NCBI GenBank assembly: GCA_030141605.1
Contig: JAQGDQ010000018.1
Location: forward strand, 496,001 to 560,000
Length of the DNA stretch: 64,000 nt
Reading direction: 5' to 3'
From: Tubiluchus corallicola
Taxonomy: Eukaryota; Animalia; Priapulida
Notes under the pieces: generated by a model
Seen by the model: only the letters and a program-made list of their open reading frames with translations
Told to the model about the DNA's origin: nothing
The model's database searches: none
Part shown: piece after piece, positions 4,096 through 52,500 of the stretch
How positions within the stretch are numbered: the stretch's first letter is position 1
Layout: each line of letters opens with the position of its first letter
Translations under genes and position numbers: made by a program

Positions 4096-6607
4096 TAGAT
4101 ACAAAGAAAGTGTGTAATGTAAAACACTCTGTTTTAAGCGTTTCACTCATTTAAGCGTATTGAATGCAGATTATTTGACGCTTACCTTCTGTTGAATAGG
4201 CATGTCAACCTGTTTTTGGTAGTTAGTATAAATTGCCATCAACTTTATCCAAAAATGTTTATATTGTTACTGATATTATAATGAAATAATAAAAGTGCGC
4301 TACTTATTGTTTTTATAAAGATTCGCTGGGCAAAAGTATGAACTAAACTTTTACTCCTCATCGCAGCCAAAAAGGTGGAATGCATGTGCACTGAAAGTTA
4401 GCTTTGTTATGTTATGTTAAGCAATGTAATAGGAGTCTACTATGCCTGCTTTCCATATAAAGTTATCCCTAAATCCTCTGTTACCAGATGTTAGATAAAG
4501 AATGATTGTGTTTCGATTCTTTCTTCCATAATCTGTCTGTCGTCAAAAAGATTGATGTTACATACTGTTTCCAGATGTTATCAAAATTTTGAAGGATCTT
4601 TTCCACGTGTCTTGGTCACAGCGACTCATTTACTCGGTAAGCCTGTCTGTCAAGTGTCAACTCTAAGAATCACTGGCTCAAGATGCTGCAACTCTCCTTC
4701 CTTTGCTTGATAATTAGTTTGAAGATTCATTTCTCTTTCAATCATTGATTATCACCGCACGCACTGTTAATAAACTCGCTAACATCTAGCATTTTTACGC
4801 GTAGCTTACGTACTGTACATGTGAGTATCACTAAACTAGAAAAAAAGCAGTGTTTGTATATTAGACACTCAGAGAGTTATTACTCTTATCAAAACATACA
4901 TAGAAACGAAGTTCTAACGAAATTTTTTCTACAGGTCGCTACATGGTATCAGCTCTGCCCGAGTTCCTCTTTTAAGGATTTGAGTGTAACTTGGAATAAA
5001 CATAGTATTGACGCAAATATGATCTAGTACGCATTGAAATTACTTTTCCATTTGAGCATGTTGGCATTGCTCTCTGGTGCATAATATTGCTTGCTACTAG
5101 TCTATCTGCTGGTCCAGTCAGATGGATACTGCGCTGTAAACGATCCAGTGTTTTCTTCTTTCACGTTTAGTAGTCTCTGGCTGCATGAAACAAAAACATT
5201 TCTCATTCCTTTTTTTCTTCTATCCTACAGTTTCATCGCCGTGGTTCGTCATCACTTACCTTGCCCAGGTTCGAGTGCTTTAAAGAACAAGGAAAGGGGA
5301 GTGTTAAGTAAGTTTAAGAAAGCTTGCGTTAAAAAAATATATTACCTAAGTATGATCTTATGCGAATAAAGTACTCACGTTTTCATGTCTACTCCAATTG
5401 TGTCGCGGGAGATTTGAAATGAAAGCAAACAGGTATTTCTTTTAGCGTGAATGTGATATGCGTGAATGCGATATACGCTTAAGATTGCTATAAACTAATA
5501 TAATTATTTAAGGCGCCTTTTCCGAACCTATTTTACGGACCCATTTTCTTGTCCTTTAAGATACTGTGACTGTTTGCTATTGTTATCTTTGTTTAAAAAA
5601 TTCGAACTTGACTATAGTTTTGAGCTGAGTGAAATATTACGATTATGCTTAGTCAGCGTCCACAGATTTTTTTATTGCACGTGGCATTTACAGTTTGTTC
5701 ATAAGCATAACTCAAAGGTACTATTCAAGACTCGTGCTTTAATATACGTAAGACCCGCATCAAAGTGGCGACCATGTGCTTTTTATAAGGACCAGTGATA
5801 GTTACAAAACCGTAGCGTAATCGAAAACGGTGCGACCGGCAGTTATTTTCCAGTAAAATGAGAAACTTTTCATTACATTGAAAACCTTTGATCTCTTTTG
5901 TTGTTAACTGATGTGAAATGTGTTGGGCTAAGATTACCAACAAATAGTCGCATATATAACCACTTCGAGACGTTAGTATTGCCAATCATTTCATTTAATT
6001 CAAAAGCACGGTTGGCGAAAAAGCATGATCTATTTGACAATACAACGACACCAAAACCACAACAGGTCAGTTAAAAGGCACAAAATTGATAAAATTGCAG
6101 CAGCAAAATTAGAGAATGTTAGATAATAAGCGGCTCTAATATAGTCTAGATAAACTATGAGAAAATGTTAAAGTTATTCATGAGTATGATATACAAATCA
6201 TGTAAATCTCTGTAATTGATCTTGCAAACAGACACTTTTTATTTCCTATTTGCACGCTGACATGGCGAAGAGGATCGGGCGTAGCCACGGTAATTTTGAT
6301 AAGCCAAAATCTCTTGGGCGTTTTTAATAAAAGAAGAATATCTCAAATAAAAGTAATTATTAGTTTAAAAAACTAAAAACATTTCATGAAAACGAACAGT
6401 TGTAGTGGTAAGCTTGTATTATGTACTTGCTAATACTTCTACAGTTTTCTTGTAAGTAAAATTTTACTGTTCTTCTTAAGGAAAGAGGCTAGCTGACTGT
6501 GTGATGGGCTGCCTACCATCTAAAAAAAGTAAAGCATTTTTTTATTGATTTATTGATTTTCCTCTCCCTCCCTCTCTTAGAGAGAAAGATATGGGGAGGG
6601 AGGAAGG

Positions 6608-6688
6608 GAGAGAGACAGACACACGCATGCATGCGCACACACGCACACACGCACGCACGCGCGCACGCACACACACACACACACACAG
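6608..6688. repeat. compound (GA)n/(CA)n/(CACG)n microsatellite
   Basis: gagagagacagacacacgcatgc...cacacacacacacaca. Confidence 0.9.
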
Positions 6689-8193
6689 ATCCTTCTTTTC
6701 CTTTTGTTAAAGGTTCTGCCATTCGTTTCTTGGTCGTTTTACTCCAATGCGAGGTGACGGATTTGGCACATTAAAAACTGCACCCATTTACGTGCCCTGC
6801 AATGAATCTATATAATTACACATATATTATATTGTAGGTTTGTATATAAATAATGCGCACACGCACGCACACAAGTAATTGCATACGGTGCTCCATAAAC
6901 AAATCATCAATACAGTAGTAGAGATGAGCAGGACTGAACTGCCAGCCTAGGGCATTGTAACGTCTTGATACACCCATGCACACACACTCATATACAGGTA
7001 TGATGTATGCGTTATTACATATAGAATTCTATAAAGCTGAGCCTATTATATTTAACAATATAAATTGATTGCCCTTAGCACCTAGGCCTATATAAAATCA
7101 ATTAATTTAAGCCCATCAATAAATAAATTATTTATCAAGACTTGTCTGTGGATTTAGCCACAGGTGTTTTATTAGTACACTTATACAAGTACATTTTTAC
7201 ACATAAACAAACTGTATTTAATGAACCTTTATTTTGACGTAAGCCTAACTGAATCTTAAAGAATTACGCTAAATATAAATGACGTCTACACATGTTACAT
7301 AAGGTGTTATGACCCGCCTGCAGATTCTAATTTATGCGCCAGGTTGGCTTCTCACCTGAATTCTGTAGCTTGATTTTAACCTATTAGTATATTAGTTATT
7401 TTGATATTATTTTTGATATTGGTTGCTTGTTGTAGTAGAAATTTATTGATTTTTGGCCAATAGAGCCGATCAAACAACAAACACCTATACAACACGATTT
7501 TACATACAAATGCGAACAAACTTAGCTACAGCACATTGAATAGTGACATCACGAGATTGAGTCAAACAAGTTAGTCTGTCATCAATATTTAAAAAGTAAT
7601 GTCTGGAAGAGGTGGAAGTAATGCCGGCTGCTTAGGATGACAGCTCTGAGGTTTCGTTTTGTTATTTTTTGTTCACTTACAATAAAAAAGAGGAGTAATG
7701 CCGTAAATGCATCTCCGTTTGTTCAAGCTGCTGTAAATCGCCAAAGACAGATGTAGGCTTTGCAGTCTTTGATTAGTGTACAAATATTTAACTTGTAACA
7801 AAAGTTACAAAACTGCGTTATGATTAGGAATTTGTTATAATTACCTGGCTACATCCTCGGGCAATTTAAGAAGATATTTTTATTTGTGTTTTTGCAACTC
7901 ACTGCTGAGCAAGTTATGAGCACCTGTCGACTGGCCTGGCTTTAATGGTCTCGTCGATTCATCTGTTACAGTACACACCGGTGCGCAAATAGCTTACGTT
8001 ATAGCATACCTGACAACAACAAACCGTATTGCTGTGCCGCTAGTGCGACAAGAACTGCGCGAACTGCTGCGCAGTAGGGCTTTTGCTTGTACTACGGTGT
8101 TTGGAGCAAATAAGGAAGGGAATTAAAATATTAAGTTAAATTGCTCGTGATTTCCCTTATTGCCCACAGTTGAATAAATGTATCAGTAAAATT

Positions 8194-8559
8194 AAACTAC
8201 AGGAACATTCTAGTAATAAAATGGCCAAACAATATACCAAACCAGGATCTGTACAATAAAGTCAAAGCAGAGGAATGGACAATTAAAATCAAAAGGAGAA
8301 GATGAAGATGGATAGGACATATTATACGACTACCAGATGACTGTCCATTAAAGTTAGCTTTCAAAGAAGCACTGCAGAAAGAAAAGAAACCGCAAGGAGG
8401 ATAGCTTCTGACTTATATCAATTTCATCCAAAAAGATCTTATCGACATACCATTAGATATCAAAAATGCAGAGACGTGGAAAATTGCTGGTGACAGGGCA
8501 GCATGGAGTAAACTGATCAGCAAGGTCATGTTGAACGACGTGTGACTCCAGAGATGATG
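8194..8559 (+). mobile_element. 5'-truncated RTE-clade non-LTR retrotransposon (3' end) with target-site duplication
   Basis: Translates YRNILVIKWPNNIPNQDLYNKVKAEEWTIKIKRRR*RWIGHIIRLPDDCP...KKPQGG*...AGDRAAWSKLI, a typical RTE ORF C-terminus with in-frame stops. Ends in a (GAT)n tail and is flanked by the 9-bp direct repeat AGTAAAATT (8185-8193 and 8560-8568). Confidence 0.85.
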
Positions 8560-11298
8560 AGTAAAATTGCACCAGTAAAATGTTTATTGCTTTAAATAAA
8601 TAAATTTACATGTACTTGGTCGGCATGCTTGCTTATGCGTTTACCATTGTGCGGCTTTTATATTTGACTTTGTTGGAAAAGAAAGAAAAAAATCTTTCTT
8701 TTTCAAAGGAGAGGGACAATGGACTGAAATATATAGGAAATAATTTTTGAGTTCACGCTACGAAAAAAAACGATTTAAAACATGGCTTGCTGAATTACCG
8801 CTTTCTGATAACCATCATCAGCTTTGTCTGGCGAGACCATAACAACAATTTGCCTGATCTACATGCTTTATAATGTTACCGGAACTGGGAAAAGAAGTTA
8901 AGTCGAATTGCTATAATTCACTTCTCTAGTGCAAACGTAACTATATAGCTAGAGACCTAATGCAGGGTAAGCGCAAAGTCATGGAAAATCGTATCTCGAC
9001 GACCATGCCCGGTTAGAAACATGTTTGTTGTAGCATTGTAGAGACGAACTCGTGGATTTTCTTTCACGAATATTGTACAGGCATTAACCTATAGGCGGCA
9101 TTGCAATCACTAATATCAAAATGTAGTAATTATTACTATCACTATTAGCGATCTAATGCATAAAAAGCTTCTTTTTTTACGGAGACCATCGTTCTACAAA
9201 TGTTTACCTGGAAATGTTACGGCGTTACGTTGCACCTTACAGTTACAAGATTGTCAGTCATAGGTCATATTTGCTGCATACTTGCTTATGTAGTTGATTT
9301 TGATGAGTTTCGCAATGTTTTAATTAGCCTCAAGATCATCTAGATTATCATCTCATGATTTGTTAGTTAAAAAAGGCACGTGGGCTCGTGTCCCTAGTGA
9401 TAAGACAGTGTGCACATTTGGTAAAGTAAGTGTTCAAAGCAAAGAGGATACGTTCTTTGTTATTGCCCATTTACAGCATGTGTTAGAACGAAATGTAGCA
9501 CTGAATATAATTTTAGTATTTGCATGTGTAAGGTAACTGTTTGAAGCAGACACTAAGGCGTTACGCCTATTCGTTTGATTGTTTTTCTGTTATTAATGGA
9601 AGACGGTAACGAATAATACCTTCTTAAAATATAAATTAAGCTCTGATTATGACATTCGTTTATGAGAGGTGCGGATTTTTATTGTATATTATCCGTGTGT
9701 GGACAGTCCACACTCCATCCATATTATCCATATTTTTCCTTTTTTTATGATTTACTTTGTAATTTTGGTAATTGTCAGTAAATTTAAACAAAATAATAAT
9801 ATTGTACAATCATACTGCAATATGGATTTCATTTATCAGGACACCCTGCGAGATGGGATAGGTGTGACTTCTAAATAATGGTCACTCTATAATATTTCTG
9901 CCGCTCCAGCTCAGATTTCTTTGGGTCTCAGATTTTTATACAGATCTTCCCAAACAAAAGACGTAGCAAGTGGGACGAAGCAAACTGCGAAAAAATAAAA
10001 ATATGAATACAGATCCAGGGCAGCAGAGAGAATATTATGGTATAATTTGGTAGTGATGGGAAACATCTGGTGATATTTTTCTGGAAGTAATATTGTAATA
10101 TGTATATTTCCACTTCAGACAAAATTCTGTTACAAAATTTATCCAAAATACACTCAATTTCTACACAGTAACACAGAAACAAATGTGGTTAGAGTTAACT
10201 AAGAAATAATTTTCTGGTAATGAATTCCGTGGGTTTAGAGACTCGAGGGAAAACTGCTAGAGGTCAAAAAACGTGGGCACCTGCACCATCAAGAACGTAT
10301 ACTTTAGATTACTTTATCTTTGCGTCCTTACGTCATCCTAATTTTTGTATCCTAATTTGACTGCAAGTAACTTAGCAAGTGCCTATTTATAAACGCTTTC
10401 ATTTTCTGAAGTGAAGTACATACAAAGAAATAATATACACTTGATCGTTGTATTTATTTACGTACCCCCATTCTTGGTAGGCTATTTGCACGGATTGCTG
10501 AAGCAACTGTTTTGACTACACACTTGCATGTTTCAAAATTTGCTGCTGAGCTTTTGTACATAAATACCCGTTGAGAAAACAAGCATAGTTTCATTGGATG
10601 CATGCGTCTGTCGTTGTAACTCATTTAAAGAAAATGTCTGGTAAAAGTTAGTGAACAATGTTTCCTCGAAGTTTGGGAATCCAAACAAGTAATAGTTTCG
10701 GATCTAAAAACGAATGTTTGCTACGGGAAAGGAAAAACGTGTTTCATTTGTGAGAAAAATTTTCCTGTCAGTAATTCCCAGTATGAGGAAAATAAATTAG
10801 CAAATCAACTAATCGGTTACTCAGATTTCAGAAGGAAGTTGTGAGATTATTATTATTATATGTTCAAGTGAACGAGATTTTCCAAGCTATCAGACTTTAT
10901 TCTTATTTATTGATTTCATTTTGTCTCAGTGCCTTTATCGCTAATGTTTTTGCGTATTATATACGCGTATCATCTACTTATATTTAACATCGAAAATATC
11001 TTAAATAGCAACTATTAACTTTTCGTTTCTGATATGATAATTATTAGCCAAACAATTTATTCAAACCAGGTGTTTTTTCCTTCAATTAGTAGTCTTTTAA
11101 TGAGGTCAGAAGAAACAGTGTTTGCTACCACCCTAATGATTGTTTGATTGTGTGTTTCAAACTTCAAACAAACCATCAGTTATCGGTGGTGAAGGACAAT
11201 GAATGGAGTAAATAAGATGCTTAGTAACACTTGACATTGACAAAATGCATACTTGGCATTCACTTGTGTCATTTTGTGTTTTCTGTTGTTGATTGCAG

Positions 11299-13607
11299 GG
11301 TCTAGTTAAAGTATACGCACGGGTTGTGTGCCCAGATATCGAGTATAAGATGTTTCGGATATCATCCAACATGACTTGTCGGAACCTCATCGAACTTGTT
11401 CTTAAAAAGTGCAAAGTCAAAAACAAGGATCCGAATTTATTCTTTGTTACTATGGAAGTTGCAGTCAGGAAGCGAGGTAATTAAATTTTGCTTTCGTATA
11501 AGACTGAGTATGTAGTAACATATCCTCCAACATTGATTATTGGTTACATACTTATTGCTTGTAACAGTATTGCAGTCCGAATTTATAAACATGTATCACC
11601 ACCTGGTGTGTATTTGGATAACTAACGTGAAGGATATGGGTCTTAAAAATAAATACAGTATTGCACTAAGTACTGTTACTGGCAATTTCTTGCCTCTACA
11701 AGTAGCCCTAGTTCTAATAGGCCTAATGTGTAATTGTATGTCTAATCTAATTGTATGTTTCGTTTTAGGGATACCATTGAAGAGCATGCTTATATTAGAA
11801 GATGATGCTCATCCACTGGTTCTACAGAGCTGTCAAGGCACTGGCGGTTCAAAATTTTTCCTAAACATGAAACGAGGTGGTCTTGTCAAGATTCACGTGG
11901 GAAATCTCATACGTGGCGTAAGTTCACATAGTTATTTGAATTTTTAAACCATTAGCCTGCATGATAATTATTACATAACCTTTAATTGTCCAGATGCACT
12001 GATTTTCAACAGTAGTGCAGTTGTTGCTAGCTTTTGTAGCTTCAATGCTGCATTTGGCCGAATTGAATACTACTGATTAAATTTATTGCAAGAAGAGTAG
12101 TGATTATATGCAAATCATCTGTCATTTGAGCCATGCATTCTACTTTAATAAACTGCTCCAGTGATCTGAACTAACTCTTTTTCATGAACTAATTTTGCTG
12201 TAATAATAATTAGGTCTAAATACGATAAGAAACACAATACTTACCTGTTGATTCTAAGTGCCTAGCTTTGGCATTGTTTTAACCTTCTTTTAGTATTACC
12301 AACTCAGCAACACAGAAGAATTAAAGTTTCTAGTTTTCATTACATTCTGAAGGTATCTGTACTCCACATACCTAATTAAATAGCCATATAATATACTGTC
12401 ATAGTGTTATAATTATGTTCTATAGTTGTAAATTTTCCAGCCAAAACGCAATTAATTTTGTAATTTTATATTTCAGTTGTATTACAAGAGTCTGTTGATT
12501 TCACAAACCACGACGTGTCGGGAAGTTGTTCGTCTACTGCTTCAGTGCTACAAGCTTGAGGAAGACACAGACAAATTTTCACTGAGAGAAGTTTGCCGAA
12601 ATCCTGATAATTTTTGTAAGTACAAATTTGACATTGTGGATAAGAATTCGAAGTTTAGGCTAATGCTTTACATTTTTGCATAAGTTCACCCACATTTGTT
12701 AAAATTATTGTAACTTGGGATTACTTTTAGCATGATAGGGTAAGGGGTAACTACTAATACAACTTTTCATTTAGTTAATTTGCCTAGTGGCTCCATCTAT
12801 GCTCAGCCTTCATAATATTAAAGTATATTAATACAAAAAGCTTGCGATGTATGCATAGAATAAAGACTCATTTTTATTAATCAACTATGAAATTATTGGA
12901 AAGTCATAATTGGCTTTCATGTCAGTCATTTAAATTATATTTCTAGATGAAAAGAAGCTATTAGCAGATGACTGCCCTTTATTTATTCAAGAATATTGGA
13001 GTGACCCAAAACAGTATGCATTTGTTCTGCGCAGGGAACCGATGGTGAGAAAACGACGAGTGAGTAGACCTGCCCACTTTTTTACTTGGAAATAACACTT
13101 ACATGCAAGCATAGTCGTAGTAATTATTAATTTGTTTATTCTGAAGCAATGACAATTTCTATTTTATACAATTCGGTACCCTGTAAGTTGGGATTCAGCA
13201 CTTAATGGTACAGCATACCAACAATGTGGATGTTATGAGGGGACTGGAATCTGCTTCATTATCAAGGGTAACTGATTGTGGCAACTGGCAGAGGTGTCTT
13301 AAATATGTGTGAATGTGGTTTTACAAGTTTTAGAACTTTTTTTAGGTGTGTTTAAACTTTCCTAAGTAATTCGAATAGTAGAATTTTAAATTTTCCTAAG
13401 TAACTAAGTAGAATACCTAGCTTAATTTATTTTTCTTTGTTTTCTTTGCAGAAAAGAAACAGAGCTCAGAGTTTGGTGGTAACAGATGATAGTCTCATGG
13501 GATCAGACAACTATGTTGTAAATTTATTAGTTGGTTGCATGGACAATGAATTAAATTTGCACGAACTGAACACGGGAACTCAGCGAAACACGTGTTATTT
13601 TGTGTAG
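11299..13607 (+). CDS. Tandem Ras-association (RA) domain adaptor protein, Drosophila rau-like (5' coding exon(s) not resolved)
   Basis: Phase-compatible GT-AG exons 11299-11476, 11769-11917, 12477-12615, 12947-13059, 13452-13607. They give two RA-like repeats (GLVKVYARVVCPDIEYKMFRISSNMTCRNLIELVLKK...LEDDAHPLVLQ and GLVKIHVGNLIRGLYYKSLLISQTTTCREVVRLLLQ...LADDCPLFIQEYW...FVLR) and end in ...RNTCYFV*, a hydrophobic PDZ-ligand-type C-terminus. Confidence 0.8.
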
Positions 13608-13855
13608 TGATGTCATTGTGAAAGCATTTCTTAGCGCTTTCAAAAGTGCATTTATAATGGAAATTGTAAATATTGGATTTATGGACACCTAAAGCACTCA
13701 GGCAGTGCTGTCATAGCTTCTGCTCTCCTTGAAAAGACTGTTTATTAAGACAGTAGAAACACTTCAAGAAAGAACATTATTGTAATTATATGGTTTGTCT
13801 ATTTCTTTAGCATGCTCTTTTAAGTCTTAATTCAGAAACTATTTCTTTTTTAATA

Positions 13856-14313
13856 CAGTGATACCTCGAAATAAGAAATTAATTTGTTCCGGAGGGGCTT
13901 TCGTATCTTAGAACTTTCGTATTACGAGACAAGATTTATTACGATTTATTATTTATAAATGGCGTAATTCATTCCAGCCCTCCCTCAAAAAAACAGTCGT
14001 ACAAAGTGTAAATATTGTACCAATCCGAAAGAAATACATAAATGTTAAAGAACAATGAGAAAATAATAAAATCAATGAAAAATAATAGTAATTGTTGTTA
14101 CGAATAATGACACTTTACCTTTCGAAGCGTTCATGCGTTGTGCATGAACGTGATGCTACGAACTGCGTTCTGGGAGGACCGCTGTCGGGCGGCACTTTCA
14201 ATTTTCATTTTCGTATCTTGAATATTTTTTCGTTAAATGGAAATTTCTTCGAAGCCTGATTCATATTCTGAATTTTTTGTATAATAGGGTTTTCGTAAGT
14301 CGAGGTTCCACTG
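13856..14313. mobile_element. Tc1/mariner-superfamily (pogo/Tigger-type) MITE in the 3' region of the RA gene
   Basis: TA|CAGTGATACCTCGAAATAAGAAA ... TTTTCGTAAGTCGAGGTTCCACTG|TA: imperfect terminal inverted repeats beginning CAGTG, TA target duplication, no ORF. Confidence 0.85.
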
Positions 14314-16225
14314 TATTTAAATATAAAAACTTGTAATGTGATAATATTTGCTTTGATAACTGTTTAGTATTTATAACAGCTAGGTTTTCGAGTTAAAGTT
14401 GTGATTGAATTAGTTGAATTAAAACTATGTAAAAGATTTAAATGTTGTTAAAGCCATAGCATGTAAAGACTCATTCTCATTACCTGACATAGTTCTATGA
14501 CAATAGTAACAGTAGGGTTAGCTGCTTTGTCTGACAATATAACCCAATTTGGTGTGCCCTAGTTAAATCAATACCTGTTATATTTAAGTGGATAACAGGC
14601 AAATACATCTGCATGATGGCACTTGTAATGCAAAATTGTTCTTGTGTGCTTCCATACAGCAAATTCAGATTCTTTTACATAAATGTGATTTAGTCATAGC
14701 ATTGGCATCACCATGTTTGAACATGCCTCAACAGGCAATTCTGTGTTAACTATGTTTTTAATTTATTTTTTATTAATCATGTTCATTTTGTTTAAGAGTT
14801 CATTTAAGCTCTAGTTTAAATTATTTCATATGAATCACAAATGAAATGCATTAGCAAAACTGAGACTGCTTGCATTACTGCATTATAGATTAGTTTTGAC
14901 TGGATAAAAGCTGTTTTGTTGCTTTTGTAGAATAGGAAAAATTTTGAATACCTGTGTAGGTGATTTATTTATGTAATATTTAATTAATTGAAAATTTATA
15001 ATATAAAATTAATTTATGAACTTTAATTATCGTACATATGAGTGAACGGTTGCTATTTTTGGATAAACTGTAAATATAGTTTTTGTATTGTACAGTTTTC
15101 ATATGGTTTTGTAAATAAATGTTTTTTAGTCGTACAGAAAGTAAATTTCTACATTTTTATTCTATGCCTTTTGCAAAAAATATAATGTAAAATTAAGTTG
15201 ATAGTATACCAAATTTTGTTATTGTAAACAGAACCAGTCTAAGTTTTCATAGCTATCTACATTAGTTTAGCGTGCATAATATTTCCGACATACATTTAAA
15301 GTTTTTTTTAGCTAATTTTGAAATATAAATTCTGTTAATATGCAGCACAGCCTGCAAACCATTATTTGGTTTGGTACAGGTGACTGTTTGCTCACAAATG
15401 CCTGCTATTTCTTATATTTACCAGTTTATCTAAACCTAAATAAATGTGCTAGTCCAGCAATGCTTTATTGAATACTTACTTATTGACCAGTCAACACACT
15501 TGTTAGTATAATGCAAACAAACTTGAATTGATGGAGAGTCAAAATACATATTTATACGGAGGTATTCTACATCAAAAATAAGAAGCTAACGTTACTATGC
15601 CAACATGTCCTGAACCTAATGATAGAAATGCATTGATGCTGTAGGACTAGTGGACCTCACATTAAGGAATGACCAGTGCCCGATTAAGGCAAGCTAAAAA
15701 CTGTGTTTTTCAAGTTCATTATGTAACAAAAGGCTCATTGTTTTCATGTATTAAACAGCAGTATTTTTATTGACAGCTATTTTCTTCTGTCTGTGGAATT
15801 ACTAGCTTTCTAGGAAAGTGCTATTAGTAAGTTTTTTCTGCTACGCAGTAGTAGTTCGATCATCGATATAGCTTTAGATATTACCATGCCCGTTGCCGAA
15901 TACAAATTGTTCTTGCCGTGGCCTGGCAGCAGCTGTTGCAATGAAAGCAGCAGCAAAAAATTATGCATCGTTATGCATGTAGGTAAGATACAGGTGTGTG
16001 CAGATTTCGTGCAAACAAATGTGCAAATTGTTTGGTCAATAAATAGTTATACGTTACCTCGTGACTGTGGTAATGATTAAACCTATTCGCGCTTTACCTG
16101 GGCACTAAGGGAGCGGTGTAGCGTAATATACCTGTTCAGCCTATTCAACTTACCTCCATTTTAGTTAGTGTTAAGCAAACTGATGTGTTATGAACTTTAG
16201 CTGAAAAGCTCAACGAAACGCAAAT

Positions 16226-19000
16226 ATGCTACGCAAGAGTTTTGTTTGTTATTTATTGGTGTTTGGTGCACTAAGTTGTGTAAAGGTAAGAATTCTGTTT
16301 CTTTGAGCATGCGTTTCAACTTTAAGAATGCCGCTCTCGATATCACTCATATCAGTCGTTCTTAGAATGTCAAAATTTTATTGTAAATTTGCCAAAATGT
16401 CGCAGCATTGCTGTCTGTTTTAGAGGGCATTAATTTTAGTGAAAAAAATTGTGAATAGGCACATGTGTCACAGAAAACTAGAAAAACTGGAGTTTGCTCT
16501 CAGTTACTGACTGTGTTTTAAAGCGCGCCAAAATAGTTAAAGTAATAATTTAATGTTTGTCAAAACATTGTATTTGTAGACCTACTCTGCTTTTTATTAT
16601 CGAATTTAGGCTTTTTTTTCATTTTTACTAAAAAGTAGCAAATAAATAAAATTGTGAAGGGATTTACAGGCCGACACTGTGGCGGCACACAAATAGCAAA
16701 AGAAATGAAAGCAAAGCTTAAACAACAAGAATCTACCATTCCTGCTGCACATTGCTACATCAACAGCTGTCTTCTTTTTAGGAGTTACGTCCACAATAAC
16801 AACGACGAGAACCACGTTGGAACGTGACAGGACTGACCACTTGGTCCCCATATCTGGAATGGGTCCAATGAAACAATTTATCAACGAAACACCGTCTGAC
16901 GATGCATTTTGGCGTGCTGACAATTCAAAGAATGTTCACTTGCTATTGTAGGCCTGTAGTCGTTCATTGTTATCGTGAAGAGTGAAATGCTGTGTATATA
17001 TAGTAGCAGAAAGTGAGAGCATACGAAATGGTGCATTTTGATTTTTTGCATCTTACAGATTTGCTAAAGTTACACTACTTTCTAATTGTTCAATAATAAT
17101 TTTCATAAATATTGGCCATGCTATTAGTGGTATAAGCTGCAGTCAGAATAAACCTTGTGGCACCATCTGTTGACCATATCGTAACAATGACGATGGCGAC
17201 ATTTATGATGACGATGACGACAACGACTATGCTAATGACGACGACGAAGATGACTATACACATTTTTACAATAAACTGTTACAATTTTTACAATATGACT
17301 TTTCAGGCGACGATATTAGTATGACCCTTACGGTATGATGGTCGGGAAGCAAATTTTAACAACTATTCTTATTTACAGGCACAATCTTGTCGTGATTATT
17401 ATGAGTACGTCGACACCATGGCCATAAATGATATTGTCCTTTCATCAAGAATAGATTTGAAGTTGAACTTGACAAAAGACGGTGTTTCAAAAGAAGAATT
17501 TGTTGATACCTTGGAAACCACGGAGTCTAATGGCAAGAAAGCATCGTGCGGAAATACGCGGTAAATCTTTTTTTAAATTGTAAGCAACAGTTATTCATAT
17601 GTCGAGGTCAGCAGCGACCCCAAAACTACGCTCTGAGGCCCTCTTCAAAACTATCCAGTGTATCCCTCTCTTTCAAAAAATAAAATTTTGCCTCCTTCAG
17701 GTGCGCTACAATTTATAAAATTAGTTAGGCCCATAAAGTTAGTCACAACTTGACTTTCATTATTTTCTGATTACATGCTGGCAAAAGTATCTGGTAAAGG
17801 TAATTATGCATTACCTTTTTGGTGTCTTTTGTTAGTTTTTTCAATTCCAAACGTCTCTTTAATCCATGCCCCTTCCCTGCAGTTACAGAGCTGTGGGTGT
17901 GTACTGTATAGTTACATAGATGATTGTATATTAATAATTTCCTGTATTCCTATCACAGTATAACCTCACCATAGTAAAAATAATAAAATGTGACAAAGAG
18001 CTGAAAACCAATCATATGCGAGGGATTGTTTTGAAGATCTGCTATGGGGTTATGAGTTCTTATTATGCATTACATGCGTTGCCTCCTGGTTACAATTATA
18101 TTCCAACAAATATTTCGGTTTTGCAGTTCGTGGGTATGCGAAATTTATGAAGGTCTAGAGGCTCAATATGAAGAACTAAAAGGAGGTGTTACTCAAGGAG
18201 AAATTGCAGGTTATAAAAACTACATTGGCGAAGACCTGGTCGATTTGTTTACTAGCAAAATGGACAGTAGACAACGCGTTTTATTCAAGATGCAGCTAGT
18301 GGGACCTGTTGACCATGTGTGGCTAATAGAACAAATGGCAGGACCGAAGTACCGAATCTACCAGAGCTATAATGATGCATATGATTTGTATGCTTGGCTT
18401 GGTAAAACAACAGATGGGATGTTTGGTGTTCACATCATTCTGTGGGATATGGTTGTCCAAATTGCTGACGATTTCTTGAAAACTCAAAATTGTTCACTTG
18501 CAGACCTTGAAAGTTGTCCTCCAGAGCTTGACTTTGCCATGGAATGGGCAGAATACATTCGTGACTACGATGAAGAAGAAGCAATAAAAAACTTCAAGAT
18601 GGCGTGGACCGACCTGGGGAGTGGAAAGGTCATAGACAAAAATGAATTTTTAGATAGATATCTGTCCAAATTATCCAAATTGACAGAGGACATTGAACAA
18701 ATAGCTGGCACGAGTGAAATCTGGACGGAGGAAATTCACACGACTTGGACTGAGCTCTTTGCTAGTCCCAATCCACTTGCGTATCCCGGCATCCCTTTTG
18801 ACATGTTAACCTCACATCTACCTCAAACATTTGAAATGCAAGTTAGGATTGATGAATTCCCAGAACCTTGTTCAAACTACAAGATACTTGGTAATTCAGT
18901 TGAAGGCTGGACGGATCCACTAGAAGGCGGTTCAGCTACATTACAGTTTTCTACTGTCATTACTTTGTTGTCGCTGGTTTCTGCTGTTCTAATTTTGTAA
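16226..19000 (+). CDS. Uncharacterised secreted/GPI-anchored protein (~371 aa) with a putative papain-fold Cys-His-Gln triad (Cif/CHBP-like motifs)
   Basis: Exons 16226-16285 (MLRKSFVCYLLVFGALSCVK, signal peptide, donor AG|gtaaga), 17379-17560 (phase 2) and 18127-19000 join in frame. The C-terminus ...PLEGGSATLQFSTVITLLSLVSAVLIL* looks like a GPI-addition signal. Motifs: ASCGNT, VDHVWLIEQ, YRIYQSY. The gene model is solid; the family assignment is inference. Confidence 0.8.
17188..17256. repeat. degenerate (GAC/GAT)n trinucleotide repeat, intronic
   Basis: gacgatggcgac...gatgacgatgacgacaacgac...gacgacgacgaagatgac. Confidence 0.7.
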
Positions 19001-19109: not shown

Positions 19110-19868
19110 AGTTTATTGTTTATAGTTTGAGATGGATCAGTCGCCTACCTGAACATTTTAAATGATGTGCACCAGGGAGGGGTCTTGTTATCCTTTTTTT
19201 TGCAAAAAAAGCAAAATATTTATAAATATCTCCGAAAATATGCAAAATATTGTAACTGGAAAAGTTTTTCAGTTTAATGGTAAATCAATTAACGTCAGGA
19301 AAAGTGAAAAATATCGTGGTTACATGTTATCTGGTGTTTTAACTGATGACGTAGATACTACGCAAGAGCTAATACACTATGAAATTTGTTCAAAAGAAGT
19401 TAAAAGTAAATTATTCAAATCATATTGCAGTGGAATTTATTGTACCAGTATATGGACAGCCTATAACAGATATAATATTGCAAAGCTCAGATCGGCATAT
19501 AACGTTGTTCTTAGTACATTTTCTAAATAATATTATTACGAATCGGGCATGTAAGCATGTTATATAAGTGTTATAATAGCTACTATATACATTAAGGCAG
19601 AGCTACTATAGCTCATGATATTGTCTACTAGCAAGTACTAATAACATTCTAATTAGCGGTCATATAAATTGAAATGTGTTTTTTTTAACTGGCAAAGGGT
19701 ACACAGTATTGTGAGATGATTTTAAATTGTAAATTTCTAGGCTAAGGTATTTTTAGTACGTATTTAGTTAGTATTTTAAATCTATCTTATCAATAATTTG
19801 ATGTGTTGTAAATGCATGTAATATGGTACTATGTGTGCTGATTTAAAATAAAAACGAAATAAAAAAAT
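19110..19868 (+). mobile_element. Decayed L2/Daphne-like LINE fragment (RT motif plus C-terminal region, 3' A-rich end)
   Basis: NDVHQGGVL resembles the RT motif NGVRQGGVLSP. KYRGYMLSGVLTDDVD and CSKEVKSKLFKSYCSGIYCTSIW...KLRSAYN match the conserved post-RT region of L2/Daphne/Kiri-type LINEs. There are internal deletions, and it ends in aaataaaaacgaaataaaaaaa. Confidence 0.75.
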
Positions 19869-24947: not shown

Positions 24948-26508
24948 ATGAATGTTAAATGGCTTATTTTTCTGCTAATTGTTGGAGTATCTGCTCTGTG
25001 CATTACTTTCTTTGGAAGTAATTACGACGCACTACCGAGGGAAAGGCAATATCAGATGACAAGAGGTAACAAAAACGGTTTTTAATTAGAATTTGAATTA
25101 TAAGCTAATTTTGTTAATATTTAGCACTTTTCAGTACGCAGATGAACAGCCGCAAGAAACCGCAGAACGGAGTGTTGCCATTGAGTAAACTATAATAATC
25201 TGCTGTTCTTTACTGAGTAGAGAAAATGATTATTGGACACCAGTGTGCCAGATAATAGTGCCTGATATGTTTTTGCTAGGCTAGACTCACTACAATATTG
25301 TTATGCAGCTACAATTTCTGAACTTTACAGTTATATCTTATTCTTAGTTACAACTACAGCAGGAAGACAGGGATGCTTATATAGTTTAAACGAATTAAGC
25401 ACTACATGCGTTCCTAGGTGTATGCGTGACTATACTGCATTGGTATAATTAATGCCTATAATAATAAATAATTATTATTATCAGTTATGTAACCCATACA
25501 TGGACAGTCTGTATAACAACACCAATAAATACCCAGTATTAAATTAATTACTACGTACTATGTCAACGTTTTTCTTTTTTGAAAGGTGAGCAACTGACAT
25601 CTAATGCCTTTTTCAAACCTAAGTACAAAACAATTTTTCCAAATACAGAAGACACTGGGCCACAAGACCACTTCAAAACGAGCAACTTCAAAGTGCCTAA
25701 CATTGTACATTATGTATGGTCAGAACCTGACGTGTGGTCTTGGACAAGTAAAGACCACGAGTTTAATCTGTGGAGAATCATTGGACCAATCAGTGCGTAT
25801 GAAAACTTGAAGCCAGACAAAATACTACTGCACAGTAATAAGAAGCCCACTGGGAATTGGTGGGACGAGCTATTGAGGATCGTGCCTATTGAATACAAGT
25901 ATTACCCTACAGTAAAGGAAGTTTTTGGAAATTCCATAAAGCAGCCCGCCCATAGGTCTGATGTGACACGAATCGACATTTTAAAAAAATATGGTGGCAT
26001 CTATTTAGACTTTGATGTGGTGGTGCTGAAGTCATTTGATCCATTGAGAATTTACGATTGTGTCTTGGGTGTTGAAACTGGCGATCTCAAAATCACAAAT
26101 GGTCTTCCAAATGCGGGCATAATCTTATCGAAGCCGAACTCAACTTTTCTGAACAAGTGGCACCATGGATACAGGGACTATAGAGGCAGTGTGTGGCTTC
26201 ATAATTCTGCTATTGTGCCTAACCAGATAAGACAAGCTGGCCCTGAGCTCGTGCACATCGAACCAAATTTGTGGCATGACACAAGTTACGCCATCTTTGG
26301 AGGATATGTTGATCTCAGTCAAAAATATGCTTACCACATGTGGGTTAAAGCGGGTCTCGTGAAGTATCCAGTACCAGGAGTAAAAACAATCTTGATGATA
26401 CCAGGAGATGCTTACAAACTACGTAACACATTTGGTGAATTGTTAAGAAGATTTTACGTCGATAGTTACTGGACAGGAGACACAGAATATAAAGAACGGT
26501 TTCACTGA
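24948..26508 (+). CDS. Glycosyltransferase family 32 (DXD sugar-binding; alpha-1,4-galactosyl/N-acetylglucosaminyltransferase-like), type II membrane protein
   Basis: Exon 24948-25065 (MNVKWLIFLLIVGVSALCITFFG, signal-anchor, phase 1), probable 60-nt exon 25125-25184, and terminal exon 25586-26508. Motifs VPNIVHYVW, HRSDVTRIDILKKYGGIYLDFDV, NAGIILSKPNSTFLNKW. Confidence 0.88.
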
Positions 26509-31259: not shown

Positions 31260-34200
31260 ATGGCAGCAACAAAAAGAGCTTGGAAACTACGTATGTACAG
31301 AATATACTATTGTATTTCTAGATACAATTTCAATAATTTTATTATGATTATGTTTATGTCATTACATGAATAACTGCATCTATACACAGGTTTTGCAATA
31401 AATTTGGCCTGCTGCCTTCAGAATAGTGCTGCTGGTCATTATTGTGTGCACTATGCACTATTGCCCTCAAGCTGTTGCATTATTTGCATACTATTCTAAA
31501 GCTGCAATGTGCAGAAGAAATATACAACAGAGATTGCTTATTTTTGTTTTTTTAACTATTTCAAAAGAATTAGAAAAATGATACCCATGAAGTGCTAGAA
31601 TGGCACAATAATAATGTTTAACAATATATGCAACGTCACATTAACCTTTGTTGCTCTATGTGAAATGCAGTCATTGTAGCAACATTTGTGTTTTCTAAAA
31701 ATTTTATTTTTTAAGTATTTTTAGTTAAATGCTAAAAACATACTTTCAGGAATATTATTTTTGCTTTCGTGTTATGGCAAAAGTAAGGGAAGACGTATTA
31801 AGATATTTTTGAACACAAAACATGTAAAAAACATTATTAAATGTTACCCTATTGTGCTTATGGATTCCATTTCATTATTTGTATACTATTTGTATTTGTT
31901 AAATCATCATATGTATTAAATATTACAGAAGAATTTGTTGCTCATGCTGGCAATGTAAACTGTTTGGCTCTTGGCCATAAATCTGGCCGGGTTATTGTCA
32001 CTGGCGGAGATGACAAGAAGGTCAATCTGTGGCTTGTTGGGAAGCCTACTTGCATCATGGTAATGATTGTAAAGACTGTTATGTCTAAATAATAATCCAC
32101 TAATGTGCTTGTAATTTATACTATACTGTTTATACTTATCAGAAATGCATATTAGCAATAAGAGAGTTAAGCTAGCTTGTCTTCTACCAATTTACCATTG
32201 GAACGTGCTGACATGCAACAAAGGAATGAATTTTTTATTGATTTTGCTTTACATTCGAAGCCTTCTCAAAAAGGTTGTACCGCAATGTGCTTTTAACTTG
32301 CTTTAACAACATGCAGGCATTCACCTCGTAGGTGCATTAATCAAACGTGAATAATCATAGGTGCTGTAGTCTATTAATTTTAACTTGCCTTATTGAATTT
32401 TGTGTCATATTGTCATTCTATGTCAATACTTAATTAATAAATTTGCTATTAGTCCATAAATTCCGTCTATGCTATATATCAAATGAATGATGCTTTTCTA
32501 TGTTAGTTATTTCACAGCATCTTTGTCTAATTTACATAAAAACAGGTTGTAAAGAAATTACTGAATTTAAAAACACAAAAACACCATGTTCGTAACAATA
32601 CTTTTTTATTTTTTTTTGTTTTTATTTTTCTCTGTTTGTTTTTCAGAGCCTTTCTGGTCACACTACACCAGTTGAAGCTGTTCGCTTTGGTGGGACAGAA
32701 GACAGCATGGTTATTGCAGGTTCTATGTCAGGTGCACTAAAGATATGGGATCTCGAAGCAGCCAAAAGTAAAAAAATATTGTATTGTGTAACTTGTGGCA
32801 AAGCCTGTTTTATTACGTTCAAGTACATGTAATTTGATTCTCCTTTAGTTATGCTTATTCGTAGATCCACTAAAGATGTCTAAAATTTACTGTTGCACTT
32901 GAATGTTAGGCATAAACCCATCCTCTATGAATAAACTAAAATGAATACTGTAAACTTTCTTATAATCTATTGCTATCCGTAATATTTTTTGTTTCAATAG
33001 GTGTAGGACTTATAGTATGAAATTATTGATTTATTCTTTTGGGACATTAAATGTAAACAAATTGAGTTTAGACTGGTAAATTTTGGTAGTTTTCTTCTTT
33101 CATTGTCTGGTAACTGTGTAAACTATAAACCTATTGCTTATAAATCCTTTACTTCCTGTAAGTAGTGCAGAAATCAAATTAGAGATTTTTAATTTTGTAA
33201 TCAATATTTTGAGTTCTTACATGTCTTCAGATATTCCTGTATAAGGAAGTGCTTTTATTGACATTTTATATAGTCGTGCGAACGTTGACAGGCCACAAGG
33301 CTAATATAAGAAGCCTGGATTTTCATCCGTTTGGCCACTTTATAGCATCAGGTTCAATGGATACAAATGTGAAACTGTGGGACATTAGACGGAAAGGTTG
33401 CATATTTACATATAAGGTAAAGTCATCATTGTCTTGCCACCAGTACCATTACTGCTTCGTCTGTAGAAGAAATTCATTGCATCTAACTCTGGTGGTGATT
33501 TATGCCTTCATTGTGATTTATTGATCTAGCCATTAAAACTATTAAGTATGCACAACATGTTGAGACCATAGTATATTGATTTCTGGTTTCTTTCATAATA
33601 GCTATAACGGTTATGCTCGCATTTTTATTCTGACCTCACATTTAATATTATTTTGTATTACTTTCAATATTCGTCATCATGAAGGAGTTGAACAGTATTT
33701 GATTACAGTGTTTTGCATTTATTGCAGGGCCATTCTGATACTGTTCGATGTTTAAGATTCAGTCCTGATGGTAGGTGGCTTGCATCAGCAGCTGATGACA
33801 GTCTAGTTAAGGTATTATTTAGCTTTGTTTACACATTGTAATTTAGGTTGCACAGTGTCATATGTTGATGTGATCTTAAATAACATTTTTCTGTATCCTA
33901 GATATGGGATTTAAGTGCTGGCAAGCTATTGACGGAATTCAGGGAACATTCTGGGTCAGTAAGTGGTGTAGAATTTCATCCAAACGAATTTCTTCTAGCA
34001 TCTGGCAGTGCAGACAGGTTAGAGTCATTTCGTACTATTAAATTTCTCTAAGCAGATTTTTCAAACTGTATGATTAGCGTACTTGTTGAGATTTGTGTGG
34101 TACAAGTGACCATATTTTTTATTTTCAGAACTGTGAAGTTTTGGGACTTAGAAACATTTAAATGTGTTAGCTCCAGTGATGGTGATTCAGGGCAAATTAG

Positions 34201-49529: not shown

Positions 49530-52500
49530 CTAAAAAGGGACTAAATAACTGTCATCATCATCTGTTGTAATCTTTCGCAGAGGTGGAAAAGTTACTGTAG
49601 CATTTTGATTCATCTCATTGGCTGCACAAAAAAGAGCCTCAAATTCTTCCAATCCGTAATCATCCAGTACAACTTGATTAGTAGCCATGTCACATACACT
49701 GTCTGTGACCTTCTTGTTTGTGATTTTGGGAGAATTCAGTTGCGGTAAAGCTTCTTGTCTTGTCTTGGTTGGTGAGCTATGAATATTACTGCCAATTTTC
49801 TGCTTTGACGGAGATATTAAGGACCCAAATGGTCTGTTAGTCATTCGGCCACGAACACCGGTGCTCATGGGGGTATCCCTTTTGTTCTCTATGGCTGATC
49901 GATTTGCACTCTTGTTTCTGGCTAGCAATGTATCTAGGCGATTTGGTATAAACATCTGACCAGCCTCGATGGACAAACGTTCTTTAACAGACAAGCTCTT
50001 ATTTTCTGTATACCCGTTTGATGTGTTTTTGTACTGCAGACAAGGAGTGTTACTTTGTGATTTTACTTTGCTAAGGTGAAACTCTGGAATTAAAAAACGG
50101 TAAAAATACAGTTACAGCATTGACATCTATTGAGTAGAGGCAACAACTTTCATAAGCAAAAAATTGTTTTCATTGAACACATGTATACATTGCATAAATT
50201 AAAGAAAGCAAGACCTAATTTAGATTCAACATATAGATTTTGAAAGGAGAAATATTACTTTTTCAGGAATCTCAGGAAAACTGAAATGAAAATATTAGAA
50301 AAAAAGAAAAACCTAAAATGGTGCGATAGGATATGTTCCCAGAGAATTTATCTGGATTTTCTAGTTTAGTATAATCAGTATAAATCGATAATTGCATGGC
50401 ATCTTATTGGCAGCTGGCTTGAACATCAAATGTTGTTGTACCTAGCACTAACTGTGCAAAACGTTGCAAATGTGCTCTAAAAATTGTACATTTCAACATA
50501 CTCAAAGCTCAAAGTACAACTGGAAGTCAAAGTGTTTACACAAATTAATAAGCCTTTTCACAGTTCCAGCGATTGATGATGATCATGAAAAGGTCAAAGA
50601 TTAAGTGTACCAGACAACGTATTTATGTACTTGACAATGCCTTGCAGACCATGCTATTGAAAAAGTAATTAAGAAAAGGTACGATTGCTAGCTATAGAAC
50701 CTTATCTAGTACATTTTTCTTGTTCCCAAGAAAGATTCTGCTAGTAAATCACCCTACACACAAACTAATGCATAATTAAGTAAAGTCCACGTAAAACAAC
50801 TGAAATTACTGAACTGATGAGACAGACGGCTTTGCTTTACTTACATATCATGTGACAGTTGTAGTTAGGATGCACTGCTGTGGCACACTTAACCTTTGAC
50901 CTACAGCAACAGTGCATGCGAACACGAAACTGTGAAAATGTTTATTCTTAAAGACAAGAATAGTTACAATGAATTAAAAAACCACACAAGGAAAAAGAAA
51001 CTGAACATTACACTAAAAAGGATACAGGTACATCAAAGAAAACACAGCAGCACAGTAGAAAAACACTATGCCAGTGATTTCTTACTTCTGTGTTTCTCCC
51101 TTATTTTTTGTGCTGCATTGGTGTTTTTTCTTAGTGCTTAGCTATATCATTTCTATGTAAAAACAAAAAGTGCCAAGAAAATAATTTAGTTGTGATATTC
51201 ATTTCTTGTAGTATTTTGTCTTTTACGTCCTTTTTTGTTAACCTGAAAAAGAAGTAGTAGTGCAAAACATTGTGCCCTGTCTTCGTTTTTCCTTGATTTT
51301 TTTTTTTTAATTGTAGAATTCATTGCTAAAAAGTATCACCTCCATCAGTTGATGAGTTGCTGCTAGATCTAAACAGGCCAGGTTTTTGTTCAATAAGATG
51401 ATTTGCAGCAAAATTCTTAACATTCTGTGTGTAGTGATAACGATGCTTAATTTCAGGTGTGGTCAATCTCGAAGGAAGTTGTTCCATAACTGCTGTTTCT
51501 TCAGTAGCATCAAGATTTTCTTCATCCTAAAAAGAAACCAACAGTTTCAGTATAAGTGTCACAAGCACAACACAGTAGGTTTCCAAACTCAAGCAACCAC
51601 TTATCTTGTTGTGGATACCATTAGTGCTCGGAATTTCCAAGATATGCATCGTACAAATTTGGTTATTAAAAACCATAATAAAAATTACACAGCACTGAGT
51701 CTCATAGTGTCACAATTATGTTCAGAAGTTACAAATTATCATGATAAAGCTAACAGGCTTGGTTAATTTTTTTGAGTAAGGAGATATTATAGACAAGCAG
51801 TCAATATAACCACCATGCAAAGCAGTTTTTGCCACTATTTACGACAAATTAGCTTTACTATTCATCAAATTACAATAGTTTTCTTGTACTTACATTGTAA
51901 AGAGCTTCTGTACTAGTTAGAGCACGTGCTAGTTTTTCTAGTGTGTCTCTTTCTACTAGTTCCAATTTTTTATGTTCTCTTCCTACAGTGTGTCTGTTAT
52001 AGAAACTTTCTGAGATGAAAAATTTTTTGCACAGCATGCAGTGATTCATTTCGGACACACTACATGGTTTATGTTGTTGGAGTTCATCCTGAAATAGTTA
52101 TAAAAGAATGTAGGTGAAAATATAGGTAAAACAATATCTGAAAGAATCTATATCATTCACATGTCAATGAATTATGGTAATAGCAAATAATTGCCAGATG
52201 GAGTTTACAATTCCCCACACAATTTAAACACCCTAACCCAACCCTAATCCTAATCCTAACCCTAATCTGCTTCACAGATTAATTTCTTGTGTGGGGAATT
52301 GTAAACTTTAGCCACAATGCCAAACAAGTCAACAAAATGTTGAAGTTTTGAAACAGACTACACTCACAAAAACAAATGAGCAGATAACCGGAAATCACAG
52401 ACACTACATGTATATTGAGTTTTATGCATAAAAATCTACGGTGATCATGACATTCTTTTTCACAGTTTCACCTATACTACATGACAAAACAAAACTAAAC

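Follow-up and report, generated by a model that had tools for sequence, protein, structure and literature searches.

Why would a spliced animal gene encode an apparently exported protein with the Cys-His-Gln triad of the bacterial Cif effectors, and what might such a protein do? The question is raised by a gene in a stretch of 64,000 nucleotides (nt) from the Tubiluchus corallicola contig JAQGDQ010000018.1, which in its entirety is termed the window. The gene is real and spliced, with three GT-AG exons on the + strand whose 1113 nt make up 371 codons and encode a protein of 371 amino acids (aa). As developed below, this protein is strongly predicted to adopt a Cif/MavC-clan fold, it carries Cys77, His144 and Gln160 as candidate catalytic residues, and it probably resides on the cell surface. 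In the cited literature, Cif, CHBP, MavC and MvcA appear only as effectors with which pathogenic bacteria target ubiquitin or NEDD8 in the host cell (PMC7472693, PMC13296761). An outward-facing cellular family with the Cif fold and triad in animals, algae, protists and myxobacteria would make the origin of these effectors testable. The family also points to an extracellular enzyme activity that is as yet unrecorded and that, if real, would constitute a new extracellular Gln modification in animals and protists. Full-text searches, with subscription journals mostly outside their scope, returned no paper on a Cif-like family that is eukaryotic or secreted, nor on its accessions, which agrees with the first-pass annotation of this locus, where the protein was suggested to be undescribed; in one survey, the main-text list of newly recognized papain-like families contains no counterpart (PMC10318531). 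Because no Pfam or NCBIfam model exists and the members are named 'uncharacterized' or 'hypothetical', some 90 clusters would gain an annotation from a single assay.

Predicted fold and triad

Structural comparisons were made with a model of the Priapulus homolog P0001, built with 92 aligned rows and standing in for the window protein; a single-sequence fold of exon 3 was of no use, with a predicted local distance difference test score (pLDDT) of 37.8. In the P0001 model (pLDDT 92.8, predicted template-modelling score 0.89), helices occupy residues 23-64 in the region of exon 2, C74 opens a 13-residue helix (74-86), H139 lies on strand 139-146, and Q155 follows directly on strand 150-154, the two strands being consecutive. 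In the definition of papain-like folds, the Cys opens the core helix and the two following strands carry the His and a third, polar residue (PMC10318531); the model shows this arrangement. CifPl likewise places its Cys at a helix start and its His and Gln on consecutive strands, and the Cif triad is hydrogen-bonded with S-N and N-O distances of ~3.9 Å and ~2.7 Å, respectively (PMC2679143).

Foldseek and an independent VIA search both led to the clan that the first-pass annotation had pointed to when it compared the protein with Cif and CHBP. With Foldseek, the matches listed to rank 20 were all Cif, CHBP, MavC or MvcA (best expectation value (E) 4.8e-3, probability 0.99). Among 48,161 chains searched with VIA, only five reached Z>=8, and all belong to the Cif/CHBP/MavC/MvcA clan: MvcA (Z 13.9; root-mean-square deviation (rmsd) 3.6 over 198 aligned residues), CifYp (12.9; 3.5 over 189), CHBP (12.0; 3.8 over 195), CifPl (11.9; 4.0 over 202) and CifEc (10.8; 3.7 over 163), with the next chain at 6.4. 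In a second structural comparison, Z ranged over 10.8-14.1 for 25 Cif/MavC/MvcA entries and dropped to 5.9 for the next one. The VIA alignments extend over model residues 17-346 and so cover both the tail and the head of Cif; the tail-like part, residues 17-70, falls within the range aligned to CHBP 78-327. The tool itself warns that a helical protein may score as high as Z 13 by chance, but the clean gap in Z and the restriction to a single clan argue against such a match here. The ESM Atlas was uninformative: its P0001 model is poor (pLDDT 0.31, with template-modelling (TM) scores by query <0.3), and the matches of a second member, P0009, at 0.76-0.77 are at chance level. On the modelled structure, no solved fold outside Cif/CHBP/MavC/MvcA is as near to the overall fold, tail included.

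The first-pass annotation had also likened the three residues to C109/H165/Q185 of enteropathogenic Escherichia coli (EPEC) Cif, and conservation and register both speak for this comparison. Counted over the aligned homolog rows that span each site, from 87 proteins, the Cys77 site holds Cys in 29/35 rows (five Ser, one Ala), the His144 site His in 49/54 and the Gln160 site Gln in 48/54, and the set is complete in 21 of the 30 homologs that span all three. His and Gln are retained in animal, algal and bacterial members that are 25-50% identical, a degree of triad conservation that, as judged from these alignments, exceeds chance. The VIA alignment to EPEC Cif starts at model residue 72 and chain residue 107, which would set C74 on C109 if the start is ungapped. 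When the family profile was aligned by hhalign to a profile of 20 Cif proteins, SCG paired with SCG, DH with GH and YQS with YQS, as did a downstream Trp, so that register with all three EPEC Cif residues is supported, though by a weak profile alignment.

Two further cysteines are conserved, C24 in 23/27 rows and C329 in 53/58. Both are kept in P0019 and P0043, in which the catalytic Cys is absent, and both are lost in P0017 and P0060; this joint retention or loss, independent of the catalytic Cys, suggests a C24-C329 disulfide that would leave C77 unpaired, and we consider such a bond likely from the pattern of conservation. P0017 (from Hydra), P0019 and P0043 have Ser at the catalytic position and may be pseudoenzymes or serine variants, the Hydra protein being also the one of these three without the two disulfide cysteines.

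Gene structure, predicted export signals and family

The three-exon model with C77, H144 and Q160 proposed in the first-pass annotation was borne out by the exon coordinates, the splice sites and the match to Priapulus (Table 1). P0001 aligns in order with both exons: with 65 aa of exon 2 at 46% identity (E 3e-10), by which this predicted exon is independently supported, and with 292 aa of exon 3 at 51%. The exon 2-3 junction (17560/18127) also found transcript-like support in one 259-nt contig from run X2 (RNA by the tool's guess, 'RNA?'), which joins 17557 to 18131 in frame with seven letters between, has the length across the joint that the gene model predicts, and likewise reads T-R-S there. 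At ~90% likeness, this contig would derive from an allele, a paralog or a relative; among the differences listed, 33 codons are affected, 15 synonymously and 18 not, none at the triad, and at least 20 further differences exist. Contigs from run X1 continue unchanged into both ends of intron 2. The contig evidence covers junction 2 and is neutral on junction 1 (16285/17379) and exon 1, which none of the aligned contigs spans. Exon 1 is the only hydrophobic one among three phase-0 ATG..GTRAG mini-exon candidates in 5001-17378; over the whole + strand of the window, 3/11 such candidates are as hydrophobic. A paralog search limited to the 64-kb window found none.

Table 1. Coordinates of the gene and its predicted features, in window positions
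Feature	Position	Strand	Description
Exon 1	16226..16285	+	ATG; 20 codons, residues 1-20; predicted signal peptide with hydrophobic core; donor GTAAGA at 16286
Intron 1	16286..17378	+	Phase 0; GT-AG; acceptor AG 17377-78
GAC/GAT-rich simple repeat in intron 1	near 17190-17260	+	Attracts unrelated contigs
Exon 2	17379..17560	+	Predicted helices corresponding to the 'tail' domain of Cif; C24, conserved; ends with catalytic-position Cys77; donor GT 17561
Cys24	17388-17390	+	Likely disulfide partner of Cys329
Cys77, predicted nucleophile	17547..17549	+	N-terminus of 13-residue helix in P0001 model; conservation
Intron 2	17561..18126	+	Phase 2; GT-AG; acceptor AG 18125-26; skipped in one X2 contig
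Exon 3	18127..19000	+	Predicted papain-like sheet with His144 and Gln160, helical insert, SPNPxxYP loop, C329, GPI-like tail
His144, predicted general base	18314..18316	+	Start of core strand; conservation
Gln160, predicted third triad residue	18362..18364	+	End of next strand; conservation
Cys329	18869..18871	+	Likely disulfide partner of Cys24; joint conservation
Predicted GPI signal	18926..18997	+	G348-G349-S350, spacer, hydrophobic C-terminus, no cytoplasmic tail; judged by eye
Stop codon	18998-19000	+	In exon 3
Two AATAAA hexamers	19847..19863	+	Candidate polyadenylation signals, from sequence only

An extracellular or secretory location, also anticipated by the first-pass annotation, agrees with the predicted ends of the protein. 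Hydropathy peaks at residues 10-15 and 360-366 underlie the calls of a signal peptide and a glycosylphosphatidylinositol (GPI) tail, and a candidate GPI pattern of signal peptide, small omega-site residues and hydrophobic C-terminus without a cytoplasmic tail is apparent from hydropathy and by eye; the window protein is accordingly predicted to be GPI-anchored on the cell surface. By a crude hydropathy cut-off, 23 of 27 near-full-length family rows (two of which represent one cluster) have a signal-like N-terminus, and three of the four others look truncated; a hydrophobic tail is present in 11/27. A secretory location as a family-wide trait is thus supported at the level of sequence.

The family itself was delineated by a phmmer search with exon 3 against 1.84 billion representatives, which gave 82 matches of up to 455 aa at E<=0.001, among which 49 passed a threshold of 1e-10 and 19 one of 1e-30; a profile search added five members, bringing to 87 the proteins aligned to the profile. 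An organism name was attached to 10 of the 30 clusters looked up, the named holders being Priapulus, Hydra, Sphagnum, Edaphochlamys, Chroomonas, Pavlova, Mucochytrium, Rhabdomonas, Effrenium and Corallococcus. In the source records, members are 'uncharacterized', 'hypothetical' or 'unnamed', and none of the 82 bears a family name. Pfam yielded no family for exons 2 and 3 and five scattered, weak single matches among 29 members; NCBIfam yielded weak sub-cut-off matches in two of six proteins, a word-indexed search with exon 3 retained 0/430 candidates, and sequence searches of the PDB returned no meaningful match. Viral contigs, phages and plasmids held no sequence match to the family. Among 301 Myxococcota genomes, eight match, five of them near full length, and these are the only bacterial members found. 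At myxobacterial loci L001-L003 the gene stands alone with differing neighbors, and these copies carry what we take to be a lipoprotein-type signal. Upstream of the C. terminator copy (L003:1044-5794) lie genes that by eye resemble those for radical-SAM, NUDIX, transporter and GMC-oxidoreductase proteins and that are absent from L001 and L002; at another locus (L010, genome G271) the myxobacterial copy consists of two short pieces only (profile 9-96 and 154-187) and is apparently broken.

Some members depart from the single-domain form. An intronless, transcript-like contig (L014:2-2308, +) has one 5'-open frame of 768 aa in which the domain is repeated in tandem at least three times; one copy has an intact triad, and the last has degenerated and precedes a GPI-like tail. 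Degeneration of the type seen in that last copy also marks P0006, P0020 and P0100. Tandem expansion and decay of the kind seen in L014 and Hydra are typical of surface conflict proteins, but are not proof of such a role.

Elsewhere in the window, a long open frame at 25543-26508 (+) has a DXD-type glycosyltransferase domain (PF04488, E 5e-13), and 33213-33524 (+) is a WD40 exon, presumably resembling katanin p80. Long open frames of 193, 433 and 1091 aa at 49530-58763 (-) lack a clear Pfam family, and zinc-finger-like CxxC motifs were noted by eye in the 433-aa frame.

Proposed activity and origin

We propose, with a confidence that is evenly balanced, that the gene encodes a GPI-anchored surface protein with a Cif/MavC-type fold whose C77-H144-Q160 triad deamidates or cross-links a glutamine of an extracellular protein. 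The characterized chemistry of the clan is that of a deamidase, transglutaminase or isopeptidase acting on Gln40 of ubiquitin or NEDD8 (PMC13296761, PMC7472693), and Gln chemistry is suggested for the window protein because the characterized Cif-clan members all act on a glutamine gamma-carboxamide. In such a mechanism, Gln160 would orient His144, which would activate Cys77 for attack on the substrate Gln to form a thioester with release of ammonia; water acting on the thioester would then yield Glu (deamidation), and a Lys or other amine would yield an isopeptide cross-link. The tail-like helices and a helical insert of ~90 residues after the Gln, which ends in the family-conserved SPNPxxYP loop, might select the substrate. 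That substrate is probably not cytosolic NEDD8 or ubiquitin, because four of the five conserved active-site neighbors in Cif differ and the enzyme is predicted to face outward. A role in defense or feeding at the cell surface would be a guess from the patchy spread of the family and its tandem and degenerate copies.

Several results weigh against this proposal. No Foldseek match reached E<=0.001, the structural matches have an rmsd of 3.3-4.9 Å over ~200 of ~330 mature residues, and the model belongs to the Priapulus homolog rather than to the window protein. By hhalign, the similarity of the family to Cif is not significant (probability 0.3-2%, E 0.02-0.23), and global mode gave no sensible alignment between the two. 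The signal and GPI calls derive from crude hydropathy, and 16 of the 27 near-full-length rows are without a hydrophobic tail. At least one triad residue is missing from 9/30 triad-spanning rows, including that of Hydra (Cys to Ser) and that of P0006, whose N-terminus is probably intron-derived; some family members are therefore probably not enzymes. Finally, peptidases, amidases and acyltransferases are likewise found among papain folds (PMC10318531), so a shared fold does not of itself show function.

This last point bears on an alternative that we regard as unlikely, whereby the protein is a surface or secreted peptidase or amidase that merely shares the Cif scaffold and cuts microbial wall peptides or prey proteins. 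Predators or microbe-eaters (Corallococcus, Hydra and Priapulus) are among the named holders, the substrate-side residues of Cif are replaced, and papain-like folds are often those of peptidases or peptidoglycan amidases (PMC10318531). However, peptidases and wall amidases score far below the Cif clan (AvrPphB at Z 5.5, phage lysins at Z<=4.3), Gln chemistry is found in all characterized clan members (PMC7472693, PMC13296761), and a moss and a green alga hold the family too. If Gln chemistry is nonetheless retained with its canonical target, the protein could be a Cif-like weapon, shed or secreted, that deamidates Gln40 of ubiquitin or NEDD8 in prey, microbes or competitors, or of extracellular ubiquitin. 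The retained and aligned tail-like domain, which in Cif likely forms a substrate surface (PMC2679143), the absence of an anchor in those same 16 rows and the patchy spread, with five near-full-length copies in the 301 Myxococcota genomes, would suit such a role; we consider it rather improbable, given that the matches, the longest of the 82 being that of 455 aa, have no translocation domain, that the window protein itself appears anchored, that the family has H-I, D, Y and N where Cifs conserve N/G/D/L, and that no conserved partner gene is apparent at L001-L003. There is, lastly, a slim chance that the protein is a non-catalytic surface receptor or an adhesion or binding protein in which the triad is a leftover or structural. 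Degenerate triads and the degenerate copy next to the anchor in L014 fit this picture, but the window protein has a complete triad, His and Gln are strongly conserved across the family, and the covariation of C24 with C329 leaves the catalytic Cys without a conserved partner.

With respect to origin, the first-pass annotation had raised the possibility of horizontal gain followed by the acquisition of introns, which patchy animal plus protist, bacterial or giant-virus hits would support. Phylogenetic analyses comprised a 39-row tree, midpoint-rooted and with long branches present, from which rows under 270 aa were left out (36/87 kept), and a second tree with topology tests on 24 rows picked by hand, with most long-branch rows left out and groups named after the first tree. 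In the 39-row tree, the window protein groups with Priapulus (support 99/97), both within a 15-row set (97/96) that includes Hydra, Sphagnum and unnamed rows, and the myxobacterial rows cluster tightly as one clade that is surrounded by mostly unnamed and protist rows. On the 24 rows, the approximately unbiased test rejected a grouping of the window and Priapulus rows with those from myxobacteria (p-AU 2e-6), and a clade of the seven animal-type rows was marginally rejected (p-AU 0.03) owing to the position of P0003 and the Sphagnum row in their midst. In this 24-row tree the pair of P0003 and P0024 (a Sphagnum tenellum record) adjoins window plus Priapulus (97/92) and may reflect transfer, contamination or hidden paralogy.

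Recent gain of the gene by an animal lineage from a bacterial effector, with introns added later, now seems very unlikely. Patchy distribution, the lack of a clean animal-type clade and the fact that bacterial effectors provide all of the nearest solved folds could be cited in its favor. Against it stand the kinship with Priapulus, the rejected clade with myxobacteria and the lack of matches in phages, plasmids or viral contigs; moreover, the homology of nine members (P0002, P0006, P0037, P0039, P0040, P0090, P0091, P0093 and P0100) starts at the R/S-x-W spot of exon 3, hinting, from the proteins, that these nine genomic open reading frames share with the window an old phase-2 intron just after the catalytic Cys. 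Because the family spans many eukaryotic groups, because the only bacterial members found are myxobacterial and sit among protist-type rows, and because Cif is far more distant (~12% structural identity), recent bacterial acquisition is not supported. We favor a family that is old in eukaryotes and has probably moved into myxobacteria, the direction being unrooted. A broader version of this view, that the family is a hitherto unrecognized eukaryotic branch of the Cif/MavC clan, comprising old and widespread secreted or GPI-anchored Gln deamidases or transglutaminases that were the stock for, or arose alongside, the bacterial effectors and that passed from protists to predatory myxobacteria, is offered tentatively and at somewhat less than even likelihood.

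Comparison with known papain-like systems

The Cif/CHBP proteins (PF16374; PDB 3efy, 3eir, 3gqj, 4f8c) resemble the window family in their head-and-tail papain-like fold, as predicted (Z 10.8-13.0), in the order and register of Cys, His and Gln, and in the Gly after Cys, the YQS motif and the downstream Trp. Structural identity is only 11-13%, however, and the C-H and H-Q spacings are 67 and 16 residues in the window protein vs 56 and 20 in Cif. The PF16374 profile matched neither exon 2 nor exon 3 at E<=10, none of 29 members at E<=1, and nothing in three myxobacterial genomes or 14 controls; it does find E. coli cif, at E 2.9e-19. Of the five active-site neighbors conserved in Cifs (Gly124, Asn175, Gly180, Asp202 and Leu203 in CifPl numbering; PMC2679143), only the Gly after Cys is retained (25/35 rows); in a register that depends on the weak hhalign alignment, the Asn position is H/I or Q/R, the Gly position Asp in 43/54 rows, the Asp position Tyr in 45/55 and the Leu position Asn in 32/55. 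The distance from the post-Gln Trp to the last strand, paired by eye, is 146 residues in the window family vs 57 in Cif, an excess of ~90, mostly helical residues. Finally, Cifs are type III-injected bacterial effectors of the host cytosol, whereas the window gene is spliced and eukaryotic and its family is eukaryote-wide and myxobacterial, with a predicted signal peptide, often a GPI-like tail and a likely disulfide. By its lack of a PF16374 match, its replaced neighbors, its additional residues and its signal- and GPI-like ends, the window protein is not a Cif.

Relationships beyond the clan are more remote. AvrPphB, RavD, MCF, the VTD deubiquitinases and the vasohibins share the Cys at a helix N-terminus and the His on the following sheet, but at Z of only 3.3-5.9, within the tool's background range. 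Triads in such papain-fold effectors include C-H-D. A C-H-S triad is also described (PMC10318531). A Foldseek search of BFVD placed giant-virus proteins in its top four rows (best E 3.4e-3, probability 0.99, TM 0.16-0.45, none at E<=0.001), which for Homavirus (A0A3G5A4U5), Pithovirus, Cedratvirus and Orpheovirus amount to weak structural leads only; the uncharacterized proteins in these rows (A0A3G5A4U5, A0A481YQZ8, A0A2R8FDE5 and A0A2I2L5X7) may be further Cif-clan members.

The highest structural scores belong to MavC and MvcA of Legionella (PDB 5tsc, 5ym9, 7bxf; Z 12.3-14.1, 16-19% identity), which share with the window family both the C-H-Q triad and the addition of a helical insert to a Cif core. 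These are Dot/Icm-injected proteins that act on ubiquitin and UBE2N (PMC7472693). The inserts differ in placement: the MavC triad is C74-H231-Q252, and the C-H pairs of MavC/MvcA (C74-H231 and C83-H244) have a spacing of ~157-161 (PMC11696984), and hence a long spacer between Cys and His, whereas the window protein, at a C-H spacing of 67, is without this insertion and has its extra helices after the Gln. As modelled, then, the window family is neither Cif nor MavC, though clan-like in both fold and triad.

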